Shown here in pieces: positions 7,359-14,043 of a stretch of DNA of 23,788 bases. Position numbers and translations under genes: made by a program. How positions within the stretch are numbered: the first letter of the stretch is position 1; every line of letters begins with the position of its first letter. The notes under the pieces are model-generated. The model was given only the letters and a program-made list of their open reading frames with translations, ran no database searches and had not been told where the DNA came from. Source of the DNA: Shigella phage fPSFA; the sequence record OR670332; one strand, 5' to 3'.

Positions 7359-9668
7359 TCAATATCCTGGTTGGCCGCGTGTAGCGCGACGTGACTTAGA
7401 AATGGCGCTGTTACTATCCTGCAACGCTGAACTTACGGTTTCACTGATTATAATACGTAAACGACCTTCGTCGTCACGTTCCGTTGTTGCCGAATCAATT
7501 CTTCCAGTGGTGTTGTTCACAATAGTAACATTATCTCCGCCGGATTTAGCGCCACTCTCCCCCATAATCTGTCGCATCTGCTCCGCCGTTCGGACACGGG
7601 AGGCGCTGGCGGGCATAATCACTTCTGGTTTACCGCGTTCGGCAATAGTAGACATCTGGCCTGCGGCCAGGTTGCCGCCCTGCTCGCGCGCCGACCGTAT
7701 TTTACCTACGTTGGCAAGACCAGCAGCTACCGCCGCCGCCGCGGCAACAGGGGCCAGATATGGGCCGACTACCGGTATGGCTGCTGTTGATTTATACGCT
7801 TCTACGGCTGACGTGTACGTGGCGATTGTCGCCTGTGCGATTGCAAATGCCTTGTACGCGGTGGACGCTTCCCCCAGTGCTGACCCGATGTTGCTTGCCA
7901 TATTGCCGAAAGCTGCACCGGTTGCCTTCGCCCGGTCAAGGGAGTAGGACTCATCCATAGCGCTTAACGTTTGCTGGTATGTTTCTTCGGCAATTAAACC
8001 CTGAGCATGGAAATCATTAAGTTTTTGCAGCTTAACCTCATACTGGCGGTCTAACTCCGCAAATTCTCCTTCAGCAAGGGCCTGCATCTGAGCGACATAC
8101 GCATCCGCGGAGAACTGTTTTTTCATCCTCTCTTCGGTCTGCTGCTCTAAAATCTCGTTCCTCTTGGCGTCGGCGTCTACCGCTATCTGTGTCTTGGCTG
8201 CTTCGAACTGTTCTTGGGAGATAGCCCCCTGTTGCTGGAACTCCTGCAATTTGGCTAATTTCTGTTGTTCCTGTGCATCTATAGCCGCGAGTTCATCGGA
8301 ATTCTGTCTGGCTATAGTATTCAAGAAGTCATCCGCGGCTTTTTTCTGCCTTTGTGCCTGGGTTTCTTCTCTTTTTATCTGCGCCGCTTCTCTTTTCTCG
8401 GCAGCGGCATTTACTCGTTCTGTTTTTGCTTTTTCGGTTGCGTCTATACGTGCAATATCTTGCTGGGCCTCCGTGTCGCGGGCCGCGTTATAGGCTGCTA
8501 TCTGCTCCTTTGTAACGCCTTCACGTTTCGCGAATGCTTCCTTGTCGGCTTGGGCTTGCGCCTTAACGCGCTCCCGGTCGCTGAGAATCGCTATCTGTTG
8601 GTTTTTGACAATAGCGTCATTCTGCTCTCGTAAACGTTGCGTAGTTGCGTTGACATTACTACCTAAATTCTTCTGTGCTTCCGCCGCGGCCCGAGTGGAC
8701 TTCTCCGCATTTTCCAATGCAGTGGCATTATCATTGGCGCTTTTTGTAAGTCGAACCAATTCGGGATTAAGGTTTTTAGACGTCCCCAACCATTCAGTAA
8801 ACACGTCCGATATGCGGCGAGCATTTTCGGCGGTTGGTTCTTTGTTAAAGGCGCTTTGCGCCGCTATCATTTCTAATGCTTGCTCACGGTTAACACCGAA
8901 TTTATCGCTAAGTTCCCCTATGTTTTGCGCCAGCATATTGACGCCAACGATATTCCCCTCGTAGGTGCCGCCGAGTTTTTCGAGAGTATCGCCTACGTCT
9001 GCTCCTTTAGCCACTAGTGCATCGTATTGACTGATAGCCGCGGATGTCGAAGCTTTCCATGTTTCCCAAGATTTAGCGTCTTCTTGGATAGCTTTGGCCG
9101 TTTGCTGTGCAATTATATCAGCGTTAGCCTTAGCCAGCGCTAACTGTGTTTCAGCGGCTTCACGGCTTATTTGCGTCAGTTGGATAAGGCCATCGGTGAG
9201 TTCAAATGTGCCGGACGAAGTTTGCTGAAAGGTACTCTTTAGTTGTTCCTGAGCAGCTTCCAGGTCTTTAGTACTGGCTTCTGCGGATGTTAGTGATTTG
9301 TACAGAACCCCACCAACGGCAGAAGCTAATGCAATTATCGCACCGAGTACCGCACCGCCCGGCCCAAACGCCCCGGCCAACTGTGAACCCTGCTGCCCTA
9401 TCGCGACGAACGCCGATGTGCCGGATTGCAACTGGACAACCATATCCTGCACCTGAAAGCCAACTTGCCCAGCCGCGTTACGGAATTTTGACAAGCCGTC
9501 GCCAGCGGCTTTTGACGTCGCTGAGTTAGTTTTATCCACTGCTGGGGTTAACTTCTGTACTGCGCCCTCGGCGGTGTTGGCCGATGTGGATAATTTGTCG
9601 AGTTCCTGCGCGGCCTGACGGGCACCTTCGGTCTTAACTCGTGCAATGAGTGATGCGGTATCAGCCAT
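7359..9668 (-). CDS. tail tape measure protein
   Basis: About 770 aa, dominated by Ala/Gln/Glu-rich coiled-coil sequence, with a Gly/Ala-rich hydrophobic segment near the C-terminus (AIPVVGPYLAPVAAAAAVAAGLANVG). Follows overlapping chaperone ORFs. Start taken as ATG at 9668 (GAGGG upstream); the ORF track begins at TTG 9683. Confidence 0.85.
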   Translation of the reverse strand: MADTASLIARVKTEGARQAAQELDKLSTSANTAEGAVQKLTPAVDKTNSATSKAAGDGLSKFRNAAGQVGFQVQDMVVQLQSGTSAFVAIGQQGSQLAGAFGPGGAVLGAIIALASAVGGVLYKSLTSAEASTKDLEAAQEQLKSTFQQTSSGTFELTDGLIQLTQISREAAETQLALAKANADIIAQQTAKAIQEDAKSWETWKASTSAAISQYDALVAKGADVGDTLEKLGGTYEGNIVGVNMLAQNIGELSDKFGVNREQALEMIAAQSAFNKEPTAENARRISDVFTEWLGTSKNLNPELVRLTKSANDNATALENAEKSTRAAAEAQKNLGSNVNATTQRLREQNDAIVKNQQIAILSDRERVKAQAQADKEAFAKREGVTKEQIAAYNAARDTEAQQDIARIDATEKAKTERVNAAAEKREAAQIKREETQAQRQKKAADDFLNTIARQNSDELAAIDAQEQQKLAKLQEFQQQGAISQEQFEAAKTQIAVDADAKRNEILEQQTEERMKKQFSADAYVAQMQALAEGEFAELDRQYEVKLQKLNDFHAQGLIAEETYQQTLSAMDESYSLDRAKATGAAFGNMASNIGSALGEASTAYKAFAIAQATIATYTSAVEAYKSTAAIPVVGPYLAPVAAAAAVAAGLANVGKIRSAREQGGNLAAGQMSTIAERGKPEVIMPASASRVRTAEQMRQIMGESGAKSGGDNVTIVNNTTGRIDSATTERDDEGRLRIIISETVSSALQDSNSAISKSRRATRGQPGY

Positions 9669-10203
9669 TATCTCGGCCCTCAAAAATAGCGTCTATTCCC
9701 ATGATAAGCTCAGCTTCCAGCATACTTATCTCTTCCCCCGTTGCCGATTTGAACGCTTCGAGGTCATGCCAGTTTAGCATTTCCCGTGCTATAAGCGTTA
9801 TCTCGGATGTTGTTTCGCGCTGTATGAACTTCAATTTTCGGTACTTATCCATTAATTCATGGAAAATAAAAGGCGGATGCTTGTCTTCCGCCTTAGCAGT
9901 TTTAGTGGCTGCTATTTTCCCCATCGCGATAAGGGCCGCCTCATGCCCGGCGGCTATGTTGTCGAATTTTTGTTTAGCGTCTCGTTCGACGAACAACCAA
10001 CGGGCATAGTCATACAGCGCCTCTACTTTTCCAACAATAATTCCTTGCTCTTGGTGTGATGCGCCAAAATTAACTCGCTTAACCCCCGGTACTGTAGCAG
10101 GAGATTTTCCAGGGACTCTAGTGTGAACGGTTCGTCGAAGGACCAACCGGTTACTATCTCTTTCGCCATCTGATGGTTTAGTTTTTCGACGGCCCACGTA
10201 TAT
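9661..10203 (-). CDS. tail assembly chaperone, -1 frame extension (gpT-like part of a putative G-T fusion)
   Basis: ORF in the -1 frame relative to the upstream chaperone. It overlaps that gene's 3' end for about 180 nt and ends 8 nt inside the tape measure gene. This is the G/GT architecture conserved upstream of tape measure genes. Confidence 0.45.
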   Translation of the reverse strand: MYVGRRKTKPSDGERDSNRLVLRRTVHTRVPGKSPATVPGVKRVNFGASHQEQGIIVGKVEALYDYARWLFVERDAKQKFDNIAAGHEAALIAMGKIAATKTAKAEDKHPPFIFHELMDKYRKLKFIQRETTSEITLIAREMLNWHDLEAFKSATGEEISMLEAELIMGIDAIFEGRDNG

Positions 10204-10439
10204 TCATTGTTATACAGGGTCCAGTCCCCTTTTTCCTTGCATTGGCCATCCAATTCGGACAGCGAGTCTTTCAGGGCGTATACCGCTCGCGTATAAGCCC
10301 GTCCTGCTCTAATCGCGGCATCGCAATCAGGTCCAACTACTTGAAGCCACTCACCGGAGTCTTTGCCGTTGGGCAGGGGAATGGGCATCCTGGTCCCTTC
10401 CTGGTGCTTTTCTACAAAATAAAAATCGCTAAGTTTCAT
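10023..10439 (-). CDS. tail assembly chaperone (gpG-like)
   Basis: 138-aa ORF directly upstream of the tape measure gene, with AAGGA 7 nt upstream of the ATG, and overlapped by the -1 frame ORF. Confidence 0.6.
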   Translation of the reverse strand: MKLSDFYFVEKHQEGTRMPIPLPNGKDSGEWLQVVGPDCDAAIRAGRAYTRAVYALKDSLSELDGQCKEKGDWTLYNNEYTWAVEKLNHQMAKEIVTGWSFDEPFTLESLENLLLQYRGLSELILAHHTKSKELLLEK

Positions 10440-10546
10440 AATAATATCCTTTGGTTAGTCGGTTACAGGTTGGATAGTTGCGTCAGGCGGGAACCACCCG
10501 CTTTTCCGGTGCGACCGTAGACGCTAAATAAGAATAGCAAAATAGC

Positions 10547-10575
10547 TTGCGCAACCGTTAATAGTGTCCTATTAT
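10547..10575 (+). promoter_or_regulatory. putative sigma70-type promoter for the plus-strand accessory module
   Basis: TTGCGC (10547-10552), 17-nt spacer, TATTAT (10570-10575), about 40 nt upstream of the AAGAGG RBS of the 10617 gene. Located in a divergent intergenic region. Confidence 0.4.
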
Positions 10576-10616
10576 CCTACACATCAACAATACATTGTTT
10601 AGTTAAAGAGGTTGCT

Positions 10617-10946
10617 ATGAAGACATTAATCGCTCTAGGTTTGCTAACTGTTTCTTTACAGTCATTCGCCCATCCTTGTGAAACTATTTTTAGCGAAACG
10701 GTCCTTAATACGTCAGGTGCCCTTGACGGTCACGACCAAAAGTTAGTACACGCGTTCCGAACTTCTGCGATAGATGAATGTATAGCCGCCGAAAAAATAG
10801 GTAAATCCGGTCTCCCGGCGCAGGTTGTCACTTATTCGGTTATTAGTTCAGTCGAAACTGGTGGAAATGCATTCTATAGTCTGTTAACCGCAACAAGGCT
10901 TCAAATGGCGTTGGCTGGGTGGGCCATGGGGTCGGAGAGTAAATGA
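10617..10946 (+). CDS. small secreted/periplasmic protein (signal peptide), function unknown
   Basis: N-terminus MKTLIALGLLTVSLQSFA-HP looks like a Sec signal peptide with an A-x-A-like cleavage site. AAGAGG RBS upstream. Confidence 0.6.
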   Translation: MKTLIALGLLTVSLQSFAHPCETIFSETVLNTSGALDGHDQKLVHAFRTSAIDECIAAEKIGKSGLPAQVVTYSVISSVETGGNAFYSLLTATRLQMALAGWAMGSESK

Positions 10947-11008
10947 TCTGGCTAAATTAAACTTACATTATTAGAATCAGATTTGTCTTAAACAATCAGG
11001 AAATAAGC

Positions 11009-12148
11009 ATGGTCACTCGCAAAATAACAGATGAACAGTTGCAGCAAGAGCTAAATGCGGGCCTCGGCCCCACAGAAATAGCTAAAAAGTACAATATGTC
11101 ACGCCGTAATGTTCAGCTTCGTTCTGCGCGCCTGGCGAAGAAAGGCGTCGGACACGGGCGCGACGTAAGCCACCTTGTGCCAGATGGGTATAAAATTAAA
11201 GGTACGTCGTCGCTGGTAGATGAATTCGGTAACACGAAACTTCAATGGGTGAAAACAGATACTGATGCTGAACGTCAGGTAGAATTAATGCGCGCGGTCA
11301 TCGACGGAATGAAGTCTGATATTACGCCGGTTTCTGCGGTCCCTCCTCCTAAAAAGCGGCTAAACGAAAAGTTGCTAAATCTTTACACTGTTTCTGACTT
11401 CCATTTAGGTATGCTGGCCTGGGCGGATGAGAGCGGTGATGACTGGGACATGAAGATTGCGGAAGACCTTTTCTCTAAATGGTTTGACGCCGCGTTTCAG
11501 AAAGCACCCGACGCTGGTGTTGGTGTTATTAATCTCTTAGGGGACTTTGCCCACTTCGATAGCCTTGACGCCGTTACACCCGAGTCACGCCATGTGTTGG
11601 ACGCGGATACGCGTTACCAGAAGTTGGTACGCTACATGATTCGTATGGTCCGCCGTGTTGTGGATATGGCGCTGGTTAAGCATCACACAGTCAAACTTTT
11701 AATCGTTCAAGGCAACCACGACCCTGTCGGTTCAGTATGGCTGTCCGAAATGTTCTGCGCATTGTATGGCAACGAACCTCGCGTATTTGTGGACACCTCC
11801 CCTGACGTATATAAGATGGTTCAGCATGGGAAAACTACGCTATTCATGCACCACGGACACCGTGCGAGATTCGACGCCATAGAGTCAGTAATGATTTCTA
11901 AATTCCGTAAGGCTTTCGGTGAAAGCACATACAGTTACGCCCATGTAGGTCATCTACATCATCAGAAACTAGTAGAGAGCCGTAATATGGTAGTCGAACA
12001 GCATCGCACCCTGGCGGCAAAAGATGCTTACGCATCGCGAGGGGGTTGGATGTCGGGCCGTAGTGCTAACGTGATAACCTATAGTGCCGAATATGGGGAG
12101 GTGGCGCGCCTCACAATATCACCAGAAATGATAGGGGGTATAAATTGA
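11009..12148 (+). CDS. HTH domain fused to calcineurin-like metallophosphoesterase
   Basis: N-terminal HTH-like segment (LGPTEIAKKYNMSRRNVQLRSARL). Phosphoesterase motifs VSDFHLG, LGDFAHFD, VQGNHD, MHHGH, HVGHLHH. AGGAAA RBS upstream. Confidence 0.7.
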   Translation: MVTRKITDEQLQQELNAGLGPTEIAKKYNMSRRNVQLRSARLAKKGVGHGRDVSHLVPDGYKIKGTSSLVDEFGNTKLQWVKTDTDAERQVELMRAVIDGMKSDITPVSAVPPPKKRLNEKLLNLYTVSDFHLGMLAWADESGDDWDMKIAEDLFSKWFDAAFQKAPDAGVGVINLLGDFAHFDSLDAVTPESRHVLDADTRYQKLVRYMIRMVRRVVDMALVKHHTVKLLIVQGNHDPVGSVWLSEMFCALYGNEPRVFVDTSPDVYKMVQHGKTTLFMHHGHRARFDAIESVMISKFRKAFGESTYSYAHVGHLHHQKLVESRNMVVEQHRTLAAKDAYASRGGWMSGRSANVITYSAEYGEVARLTISPEMIGGIN

Positions 12149-12618
12149 CATGGAATGATGTTTACGAATACGAAAACGGGAATCTTTACGCTAAGGACAG
12201 CGTAAACCCTAAGTACCAGAAAGGGCGTAAAGTAGGGTACGTTGATCAACGCGGATATGTAAGAACTAAACTAGGGCCAAAAATGACATTCGCCCACAGA
12301 ATTATATGGGAAATGTTTAACGGAGCTATACCGGAAGGCAAGGAGATTGACCATATAAACGGTGTGAAAAGCGATAACCATATAAAGAATCTTCGGCTAT
12401 GCGACCGGCGCATAAACTGCAAAAACGCGGCAAAGCGCAGGGATAACTCGTCTGGTGTTACTGGGGTCAGTAAAACATATAACGGTAAATGGGTAGTTCA
12501 AATTCAATATAACGGAAATAGAATAGCCAAGCGTTTCGACAACAAAGAAGACGCCATAAGATATGCCGAATGTTTTTACAAAGAAAAGAAAGACTTTACT
12601 GAGAGGCACGGAAAATGA
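12145..12618 (+). CDS. HNH homing endonuclease with AP2 DNA-binding domain
   Basis: HNH motif IDHINGVKSDNHIKNLRLCDRRINCKN, followed by an AP2-like segment SSGVTGVSKTYNGKWVVQIQYNGNRIAKRFDNKEDAIRYAE. Apparent TTG start overlapping the previous stop. Confidence 0.8.
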   Translation: MTWNDVYEYENGNLYAKDSVNPKYQKGRKVGYVDQRGYVRTKLGPKMTFAHRIIWEMFNGAIPEGKEIDHINGVKSDNHIKNLRLCDRRINCKNAAKRRDNSSGVTGVSKTYNGKWVVQIQYNGNRIAKRFDNKEDAIRYAECFYKEKKDFTERHGK

Positions 12619-12845
12619 CAAACAAATATAACCGTACAATGACAAACACCGAAGGTGACAGCATTACCTGTGATGTGTATGACGTTCTGAGAGCCTTTGA
12701 TATCCGCGACCCTGCACTACAGCACGCATTGAAGAAGCTGTTGTGTACTGGTTTACGAGGGCATAAAGATGCTGATACTGACCTACGCGAGGCAATGGAG
12801 AGTCTGGATAAATACCGACTATATCTGAGTAATCTTGAAGAATGA
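12615..12845 (+). CDS. small hypothetical protein (76 aa)
   Basis: ATGA overlap with the HNH gene stop; the ORF ends directly at the terminator. Confidence 0.5.
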   Translation: MTNKYNRTMTNTEGDSITCDVYDVLRAFDIRDPALQHALKKLLCTGLRGHKDADTDLREAMESLDKYRLYLSNLEE

Positions 12846-12849
12846 AATT

Positions 12850-12876
12850 AAGGCCCCGAAAGGGGCCTTTTTCTTA
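12850..12876. terminator. bidirectional intrinsic terminator between accessory module and major tail gene
   Basis: AAGGCCCC-GAAA-GGGGCCTT followed by TTTCTT on the plus strand, and a U-rich run on the minus strand as well. The 20-mer core is identical to the one at 1360-1379. Confidence 0.65.
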
Positions 12877-14043
12877 GGCATACTTAATGCGCTGGATAAC
12901 AATCGATGACTGGAACTGGTTCCCGGTTGCCTGTCCCTCAAGAGAAAGGGTGATAGACTCAGGGCCGCCGATTTCCGGAGTTGCAGACGTCAGTGAAGCA
13001 CGTTTTAGTGTAAAGCTCATTGCGCCATCCGGGCCATCAAGGACCGAAGATACCTCCATTTCTGTTTCATCCAGGAATTTATTTAACAGCGTCAGGTCGT
13101 ACAGTTTACCAGCCAGTGAGAAAGTGTTAGCCGCGCGGCCGCGCTCAACAAATGCCACGCTGTTATTTCCCAACTCGAACTGTGCGGATGCGCCGTTGTC
13201 GTTAGTAATGGTGAACGTGTCGATAAGTTTAAGCGGCGCGGCTCCGTCATAAGCAGATACATCAACCGATGCAAACGGACGGGCGCTAAAATTGGTCGTG
13301 AAATCTGAACCACTCGGCGGTGCTTGTAAGATTTCCTGATTCAAGCCGATGAACGGGAATGAACCTGTCACCATAGCGTTAACCGCCTGTTCTATAGTGA
13401 ACCCGGTAAACTCAACGCCACGGGTTACGATATATGAATCCGGGTTTCCGCACTTACCTTTCAACCACGTAAGAATCGAATATGTCTTACACAAGTTACC
13501 GGTTTCCAGTTTATCTGCGATACGCAAATTGGCCTGGACGTCGGATTCGGCGGTAAGGGTATGCTGGATACCCGCACCGGTTACGACTGTAGCGGTTACT
13601 GCGGTAACGAGGAAAGCTTTATCGTTATTACCCGACAAACCATCGAATTGCACCAGGTCGCCTACTTCAACGCCGTCTGTCACAAAGCTACCGGTAGCGC
13701 GTGTAAAAGTTTTCGCTGCTGGGGCTACGGTGATACCAATGCCTGATAGAGTTGACCCGGCCACCCATGAACTAGTCATCGCACCGGCCAACAGCTCGTC
13801 CTGACTGGTCGCGCTCAGTTCAATAGCGTATTCACCTGTTACCTGACGGTTGCCGGTGCGGATGGACGATGTTTCACGGCTGCCGTCGAGCTCGTTGGAA
13901 ATGAGGGCGTCGCGCGTTACGGCCGGAATGCCACCAGTGTTGCGGAGCGGCTGCCATACCGGATTATCGGGCGTCACACCCGGCGTCGTCTCAAGAACGT
14001 AAAATTGCGCGGTCATCGCGCCCTTATATGGTTGTAACGCCAT
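12874..14043 (-). CDS. major tail (tube) protein
   Basis: 389-aa ORF immediately downstream of the head-tail joining and terminator genes and upstream of the tail chaperone/tape measure block. Call is by position. Confidence 0.55.
   Translation of the reverse strand: MALQPYKGAMTAQFYVLETTPGVTPDNPVWQPLRNTGGIPAVTRDALISNELDGSRETSSIRTGNRQVTGEYAIELSATSQDELLAGAMTSSWVAGSTLSGIGITVAPAAKTFTRATGSFVTDGVEVGDLVQFDGLSGNNDKAFLVTAVTATVVTGAGIQHTLTAESDVQANLRIADKLETGNLCKTYSILTWLKGKCGNPDSYIVTRGVEFTGFTIEQAVNAMVTGSFPFIGLNQEILQAPPSGSDFTTNFSARPFASVDVSAYDGAAPLKLIDTFTITNDNGASAQFELGNNSVAFVERGRAANTFSLAGKLYDLTLLNKFLDETEMEVSSVLDGPDGAMSFTLKRASLTSATPEIGGPESITLSLEGQATGNQFQSSIVIQRIKYA

Follow-up and report, generated by a model that had tools for sequence, protein, structure and literature searches.

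A helix-turn-helix metallophosphoesterase in the tail gene region of Shigella phage fPSFA: a candidate DNA nuclease from a widespread phage protein family

Introduction

The stretch of DNA considered here, 23,788 nucleotides from Shigella phage fPSFA (sequence record OR670332; termed 'the window' throughout), harbors a short operon on the + strand, flanked on one side by the genes for the tail-assembly chaperone and the tape measure and on the other by the major tail gene, each of which lies on the - strand. The second gene of that operon encodes a protein in which an N-terminal helix-turn-helix (HTH) module is followed by a calcineurin-like metallophosphoesterase (MPE) domain ('HTH-MPE'). The two-metal active site of this protein is intact, its fold leans toward that of nucleases, and its relatives are found in genomic contexts of an early or replication type. 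Among the functions that might be assigned to it, that of a metal-dependent DNA nuclease, tethered by its HTH, is the one that we favor, if by a modest degree. The gene and its parts are located as follows.

11009-12148, + strand: HTH-MPE gene (379 residues), second gene of the operon
11030-11140, + strand: N-terminal three-helix HTH, residues 8-44 (from AlphaFold2 helices and the HTH Pfam matches of relatives)
11189-11317, + strand: family-specific beta-hairpin (residues 61-85, with conserved G74 and W80) and helix (residues 87-103) (from the alignment and the model)
11363-12133, + strand: binuclear MPE catalytic domain, residues 119-375 (from residue conservation and fold matches)

The gene and its existing annotation

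The open reading frame (ORF) begins with an ATG codon, with an AGGAAA ribosome-binding site 6-11 nucleotides 5' of it. The source phage is a Jerseyvirus (Guernseyvirinae), and the region from 10500 to 12900 is 98.5% identical to that of Salmonella phage S4lw and 88-90% identical to that of many other Jerseyviruses. The S4lw counterpart (a 99.5% identical protein by tblastn) is labeled 'metallophos domain-containing protein' in GenBank, and the protein matches PHROG 704 over its full length (E=5e-165, residues 4-375 against positions 2-389 of a 390-position profile); the name of that family, 'DNA repair exonuclease', is an inferred annotation rather than one derived from a tested function. The gene is already known, being annotated in GenBank and belonging to a catalogued and very common phage family.

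The names that GenBank records give to the protein contradict one another. They include UDP-N-acetylmuramoylalanyl-D-glutamate--2,6-diaminopimelate ligase (MurE ligase), oxidoreductase, transcriptional regulator, recombination endonuclease subunit, DNA repair exonuclease and winged helix-turn-helix protein, none of which could be traced to an experiment in the matched records or the literature found.

The catalytic domain

An earlier note, made from the sequence alone, had described the protein as an HTH fused to a calcineurin-like phosphoesterase, a description that is now borne out by its motifs, its fold, its HTH helices and the conservation of its family. All five of the motifs listed in that note are found in the canonical MPE order: DFH (130-132), GDFAHFD (178-184), GNHD (235-238), HHGH (281-284) and GHLHH (314-318). 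Expressed as catalytic-domain motifs, they correspond to D130-x-H132, G178-D179-x-x-H182, G235-N236-H237-D238, H282 and G314-H315-x-H317, and thus to the ordered series (DxH, GDxx[DH], GNH[DE], H and GHxH) that marks the calcineurin-like binuclear MPE superfamily, whose characteristic fold is likewise present.

The pattern is retained under careful alignment. Across 121 relatives, each sharing 31-50% of its residues with the query (the columns average 31% identity), the residues of the metal site are either invariant or at least 95% conserved: D130, H132, G178, D179, N236, H237, H282, G314 and H317 do not vary, H182 is 97% conserved and H315 at least 95%, and D184, T190, D198, R202, D238 and D339 join these last two among the positions that are at least 90% conserved. 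Of 134 relatives, 126 retain the catalytic pattern in full. Kept at such levels of identity, the motifs are not, as judged from the alignment, a product of chance. Pfam models do not reach their gathering scores with the query alone (Metallophos_2, 21.4 bits against a cut-off of 27; Metallophos, 19.8 against 21.5), they are matched by only 27 and 18 of the 121 relatives (and then at E<=0.01 rather than at the gathering score), and an NCBIfam scan of the protein returned no matches. Because both the motifs and the fold are present, the sub-threshold Pfam scores reflect the sensitivity of the models and are not evidence against membership in the superfamily.

The N-terminal module and the overall architecture

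The architecture of the protein was modeled with AlphaFold2 on the family alignment (pLDDT 93.8, pTM 0.83; a single-sequence run reached a pLDDT of only 41 and was unusable). The model places three helices at residues 8-16, 21-27 and 32-44, joined through a linker of lower model confidence (residues 45-60) to the beta-hairpin, and an MPE core at residues 119-375. Those three predicted helices, together with the Pfam matches of relatives, uphold the DNA-binding-like HTH of the earlier note: members of the family match HTH_1 (26 members), HTH_50, HTH_8, Sigma70_r4_2 (best E 1.5e-9), GerE (2.4e-8) and other models of this kind, the query alone matches just HTH_24 (E=0.044), and the family profile has a weak GerE match in the PDB (E=0.02). 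On these comparisons the N-terminal module is an HTH of DNA-binding type, for which DNA binding itself is predicted.

Among the best 150 of 4521 family representatives, the N-terminal HTH module is found in 135, the hairpin in 141 and the full architecture (N-terminal module, hairpin and MPE) in 135; the fusion is therefore a trait of the family and no local accident. The HTH is nevertheless the least conserved part of the protein, whereas the catalytic residues are invariant, and homologues that have no HTH do exist (for example, in Campylobacter phages).

Structural comparisons place nucleases at the head of the ranking. The top structural-match scores were those of the PolD DP1 proofreading exonuclease (15.7), SbcD (15.2) and Mre11 (15.0), followed by LpxH (13.9), MJ0936 (13.5), GpdQ (12.4) and Rv0805 (11.9), by a nuclease MPE from P. 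putida (9.4) and by the protein phosphatases PP5 and PP1 (about 9). Foldseek agrees, and the relatives found in a viral structure library are uncharacterised, with a few of them named 'DNA polymerase II small subunit'. The modeled fold thus leans to the nuclease branch and away from the protein phosphatases, by a margin over generic phosphodiesterases such as LpxH, MJ0936 and GpdQ that is small, which makes DNA a putative substrate. A profile search and a structure prediction had been proposed in the earlier note as a means of telling nuclease from protein phosphatase folds; the fold proves to be nearer to the nucleases, and the MPE matches of phmmer and profile searches of PDB sequences were all insignificant. 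The accompanying opinion, which allowed for nuclease and phosphatase alike and held that sequence does not disclose the substrate, stands.

The surrounding operon

The other features of the operon are these:

10547-10575, + strand: sigma-70-type promoter, TTGCGC (10547-10552), a 17-nucleotide spacer and TATTAT (10570-10575), as read from the sequence
10617-10946, + strand: first gene of the operon, 109 residues, with a Sec-type signal peptide (PHROG 14165; DUF3718 in S4lw)
12145-12618, + strand: HNH (HNH_3) homing endonuclease gene (Pfam HNH_3, E=1e-19)
12615-12845, + strand: last gene of the operon, a 76-residue protein, conserved downstream of the MPE gene in Jerseyviruses
12850-12869, no strand assigned: bidirectional hairpin resembling an intrinsic terminator (8-bp stem, 6 G-C pairs), before the convergent major tail gene

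The orientation of the operon is that of the replication module, and opposite to that of the tail genes around it. The promoter sequence is conserved as TTGC[GA]C-N17-TA[TC]TAT in Jerseyvirus and Kagunavirus loci, even though the first gene downstream of it differs, and it was missed by a generic promoter scan because its -35 element matches at 3/6 positions only; we infer that it acts as a host-type promoter of the operon. T-rich runs lie downstream of the terminal hairpin on both strands. A function for HTH-MPE in the virion or tail was considered and rejected, given its location on the opposite strand, the promoter and terminator of its own, and the homologues that are found in early or replication regions. 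The slot immediately behind the promoter is one for variable 'cargo': in this phage it holds the signal-peptide protein, in Kagunavirus an Imm-type superinfection-immunity gene, and at further loci various small ORFs.

The HNH gene is clearly, from comparison of the loci, an insertion that lies outside the ancestral operon. It is missing from most Jerseyviruses (of 391 matching records, just 7 span 80% or more of the query), it sits precisely at the junction of the MPE gene with the 76-residue gene, and its TTG start overlaps the MPE stop. Comparison of copies with and without the insertion indicates that it altered the C-terminus of the MPE protein, from PEMLG-stop to PEMIGGIN-stop. Homing endonucleases also flank homologues of HTH-MPE in T1 and in a Campylobacter phage, as well as in a B. 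pseudomallei prophage, where the upstream one is HNH-AP2 and the downstream one GIY-YIG.

The 76-residue protein has no Pfam or NCBIfam match, and it matches only the C-terminal ~70 positions of the longer PHROGs 2452, 17613 ('ATPase') and 13223; it may represent a free-standing version of a C-terminal domain. The idea that it is a remnant of the Kagunavirus kinase gene was rejected, as the two were unrelated on comparison.

Two observations concern the tail genes. A ~45-nucleotide element at 10480-10524, upstream of the chaperone start at 10439 (- strand), shows high conservation in both Jerseyvirus and Kagunavirus. Its - strand folds as an outer stem (GCGUC/GACGC) around two hairpins, with compensatory changes at 3 of 15 pairs in 12 sequences; it has no Rfam match, and its single-sequence folding energy is no better than that of shuffled sequences. 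It may serve the chaperone and tape-measure genes as a 5' untranslated region or as an element of processing or late regulation. Two - strand ORFs that immediately precede the tape-measure gene and overlap in different frames (10023-10439, 138 residues, and 9661-10197) look like the usual G/GT pair of tail chaperones that is expressed through a programmed frameshift, and the S4lw label 'DNA-directed RNA polymerase III subunit' on the downstream part is almost certainly a mislabel.

Distribution and genomic contexts

When 1.84 billion cluster representatives (50% identity) were scanned in full with HMMER, 4521 relatives were returned at E<=1e-3 and 1144 at E<=1e-30, and nearly all of the best 150 are 370-420 residues long. 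A tblastn search detects the family in 2004 of 50,697 phage records (~4%); among the carriers are T1, HK578, lambdoid phages, N4-like roseophages, Campylobacter myoviruses and many phages of Klebsiella, Vibrio and Rhodobacter. Across the Guernseyvirinae genomes matched, HTH-MPE occupies the same position.

Related loci (about 60) were gathered with a 15-sequence alignment, the 121-sequence alignment being too diverse for this purpose. In Drexlerviridae, HTH-MPE lies directly upstream of the holin-endolysin-spanin genes, and a 2026 paper reports the combined HTH-MPE/lysis module to persist in 508 of 522 genomes, and polynucleotide kinase and dNMP kinase genes to be the commonest to follow it directly in those members that have no SH3 gene (PMC13164509). 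In lambdoid prophages it is found in the nin region, accompanied by NinB at 11 loci and NinG at 5, with the antiterminator Q immediately downstream at 8. Another siphovirus carries it after PolA, in a replication module of the Jerseyvirus type; in Campylobacter phage F372 an HTH-less homologue is situated between a ligase that directly precedes it and genes downstream of a Holliday-junction resolvase; and in an N4-like phage it adjoins thyX and a dCMP deaminase. The dGTP_diPhyd_N family is also among its recurrent nucleotide-acting neighbors.

The operon of Kagunavirus runs from Imm (superinfection immunity) through HTH-MPE and a PNKP-type HAD 3'-phosphatase to a dNMP-kinase-like P-loop protein (PHROG 139). 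In Kagunavirus the MPE stop overlaps the start of the HAD phosphatase gene (PF25109). The order of HTH-MPE, HAD 3'-phosphatase and kinase is seen in Escherichia phage vB_EcoS-22664BS2 (locus L093, 2501-4670) and is repeated at three other loci (L054, L060 and L061). Together, the HAD phosphatase and the P-loop kinase look like a split polynucleotide kinase-phosphatase; the source Jerseyvirus has neither gene.

The immediate neighbors at five diverse loci show no similarity to the genes that flank HTH-MPE in fPSFA. Since there is no universal neighbor, the gene has the character of a self-contained module, moving in the company of early or middle genes of DNA and nucleotide metabolism. At one prophage locus (L007, 12565-12927), a gene with an Acb2/Tad1 hairpin, resembling the 'sponges' that act against CBASS and Thoeris, lies three genes downstream of the HTH-MPE homologue and just after the lysis genes.

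A candidate DNA nuclease and its alternatives

HTH-MPE may be pictured as a three-part enzyme, comprising the HTH with its flexible linker, the beta-hairpin and helix, and a catalytically intact binuclear MPE. By analogy with other MPEs, D130, H132, D179, N236, H282, H315 and H317 would hold two metals, H237 would be the general acid, and H182 would fill the GDxxH position, which the P. putida MPE requires for the cleavage of DNA. The enzyme would then be a Mn2+-dependent (or Fe/Mn-dependent) DNA phosphodiesterase, acting as an exonuclease and/or an endonuclease of the Mre11/SbcD/PolD-DP1 structural type, and it would act alone, without a Rad50-like ATPase, drawing its affinity for DNA from the HTH. 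Its roles could include the processing of DNA ends or of recombination and replication intermediates, or the breakdown of host DNA for nucleotide salvage. A host-type promoter of its own and the orientation of the replication genes make early or middle expression probable, and with it a part in the DNA or nucleotide metabolism of the phage. In this scheme the domain architecture, the intact active site, the fold class, the family with its distribution and the genomic contexts are observed, and we infer the metal, DNA as the substrate, the timing of expression and the biological role.

Several observations count in favor of a tethered nuclease, which we judge to be somewhat more probable than not. 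The HTH has been retained, the active site is invariant, PHROG 704 is matched, the operon has its own promoter and terminator, and the gene has persisted in nearly all of the Drexlerviridae genomes cited above; the DNA and nucleotide metabolism contexts (nin regions, PolA, ligase and resolvase, thyX and dCMP deaminase, and PNKP-type genes) point the same way. The coupling to PNKP-type genes in some lineages fits a nuclease that, like the P. putida MPE, leaves 3'-phosphate ends, and equally allows for end-healing. A more specific version, which is tentative and probably goes too far, would make HTH-MPE the as yet unassigned nuclease that initiates the breakdown of the host chromosome in T1-like, Jersey-like and related siphoviruses, so as to feed nucleotide salvage and/or silence defense genes, in the way shown for the mycobacteriophage MPE Gp48, which does not look related; the HTH would load the enzyme, and cleavage would produce 3'-phosphate ends. 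Such ends would account for the translational coupling of the gene to a PNKP-type 3'-phosphatase and a kinase, as in Kagunavirus and many Drexlerviridae.

Other observations weigh against a nuclease. Sequence similarity to SbcD and Mre11 is not significant (phmmer E=1.2; family profile against the PDB, E 0.4-0.9), and an hhalign comparison with the single E. coli SbcD sequence (probability 2.8%, 16 columns around GNHD) was uninformative. The complete S4lw genome contains no Rad50/SbcC-like gene, nor does a Rad50/SbcC-type family appear among the top 25 recurrent neighbor families of the ~60 loci (ten of these families were checked against Pfam), and the HTH-MPE model has no capping domain C-terminal to the nuclease domain. 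No neighbor family is present at more than 11 of those loci, and because the neighbors are not conserved, the biological role cannot be read from context; several of the neighbors have free nucleotides as their substrates, and would fit no less well beside a nucleotide-level enzyme. Finally, no biochemical or genetic study of any member of the family was found in the literature, and HTH-MPE goes unmentioned in a preprint on transposon essentiality and in a paper on the genomics of Salmonella phages.

The nucleotide-acting neighbors (dGTP_diPhyd_N, the dNMP-kinase-like protein, the HAD phosphatase, thyX and dCMP deaminase) speak for a phosphoesterase of free nucleotides, which would reshape nucleotide pools or quench defense signals by hydrolyzing dNTPs or dNDPs, dinucleoside polyphosphates or cyclic (oligo)nucleotide immune signals. 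The sponge-like gene of the prophage noted above would be in keeping with such an activity, as would a defense system in which a calcineurin-like enzyme and a HAD phosphatase dephosphorylate dNTPs stepwise (PMC12871103). We nonetheless regard this as unlikely: it leaves an HTH that is retained in 135 of 150 representatives unexplained, the best structural matches are nucleases, the GDxxH histidine is conserved, and there is no PADLOC v2.0 match to a defense or anti-defense system (a 2023 library that may lack the Calcineurin-CE family described in PMC12871103). Less likely again is the healing of nucleic acid ends, in which the protein, as a 2',3'-cyclic phosphodiesterase, a 3'-phosphatase or a remover of blocked ends, would join PNKP-type genes and a ligase in repairing DNA or tRNA that host nucleases have broken. 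The overlapping stop and start codons of the Kagunavirus genes and the like arrangement at three other loci speak for it, as do the status of this pairing as the commonest alternative arrangement downstream in Drexlerviridae (PMC13164509), the ligase directly before the F372 homologue and the MPE-type phosphatase modules that do this in bacterial Pnkp (PMC2190708, PMC3675462). Most family members, however, including that of the source Jerseyvirus, have no PNKP or ligase neighbor, a second 3'-phosphatase would be redundant beside the HAD enzyme, and a nuclease that leaves 3'-phosphates accounts for the pairing equally well.

Two further proposals seem to us very improbable. That HTH-MPE is a protein Ser/Thr/Tyr phosphatase that reprograms host or phage proteins is suggested by lambda NinI, a Ser/Thr protein phosphatase that also belongs to the MPE superfamily and lies in the same slot just upstream of Q, where the HTH-MPE gene is found at 8 loci in lambdoid prophages. 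Against it, the signatures of that class (GDxHG, GDxVDRG and GNHE) are absent, with DFHLG, GDFAHFD and GNHD in their stead, and a separate NinI-like Metallophos gene coexists with HTH-MPE in the B. pseudomallei prophage; hhalign against the single lambda NinI sequence gave a probability of 0.7%, which is uninformative. The fold shows no close similarity to this class either, and a phosphatase of the lambda type was rejected. Just as little credence is due to a protein that serves mainly as a transcription factor (for example, in an early-to-late switch), with the HTH as its effector and the MPE as a sensing or auxiliary module. In its favor, the HTH is of a sigma-70 region 4, GerE, LysR or Fis type, the lysis cassette directly follows the gene in nearly all Drexlerviridae (508/522; PMC13164509), in prophages Q or lysis genes lie downstream of it, and one GenBank record labels it 'transcriptional regulator'. 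Against it, the catalytic residues are invariant and the HTH is the part least conserved, some homologues dispense with the HTH, and the Jerseyvirus gene is far from any lysis or late-promoter region.

Whichever activity it possesses, the family is one of the most widespread among phage enzymes that have no tested function, and it is carried, under labels that contradict one another, by many therapeutic phages of Salmonella, E. coli and Klebsiella. As a discovery it is real and ordinary; as a target for characterization it is a reasonable one. Such work would fix annotation across thousands of genomes, and could show by what means these small virulent siphoviruses, with no partner of the Rad50 type, deal with host DNA or with DNA ends.

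Comparison with known enzymes

Relative to Mre11/SbcD and to gp47 of phage T4, HTH-MPE has neither a Rad50/SbcC/gp46 ATPase partner nor a capping domain, and it carries, unlike them, an N-terminal HTH and a beta-hairpin. Since partner and capping domain are both missing, and sequence similarity is not significant, it was rejected as a true orthologue of Mre11/SbcD. It differs likewise from archaeal PolD DP1, a 3'-5' proofreading exonuclease, in that it has no DP2 catalytic subunit and an identity of only 12-13%; Jerseyvirus, moreover, uses a family-A polymerase, and the T1-like carriers of HTH-MPE are not known to encode a DNA polymerase.

Two other enzymes offer parallels. The P. putida MPE (the single-stranded DNA endonuclease of an Lhr operon, PDB 6NVO) is likewise a stand-alone nuclease with neither a capping domain nor an ATPase partner. 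Two of its histidines, His81 (three residues after Asp78, in GDxxH) and His113 (in GNH), are essential for the cleavage of DNA but not for the hydrolysis of bis-pNPP, and it leaves a mixture of 3'-PO4 and 3'-OH ends (PMC7826289). H182 (GDxxH) and H237 (GNH) of HTH-MPE stand at the same motif positions, and these two histidines, which are not metal ligands, would by analogy support a nucleic acid substrate. For the degradation of host DNA, a functional precedent is provided by Gp48 of mycobacteriophage A10ZJ24, an early-expressed MPE with phosphodiesterase activity that damages host genomic DNA and so blunts host defense (PMC12287305). The two proteins differ in that motif I of Gp48 begins at about residue 10 (its inactivating mutant is D10G), so that it has no N-terminal HTH or hairpin, and in that its host belongs to another clade.

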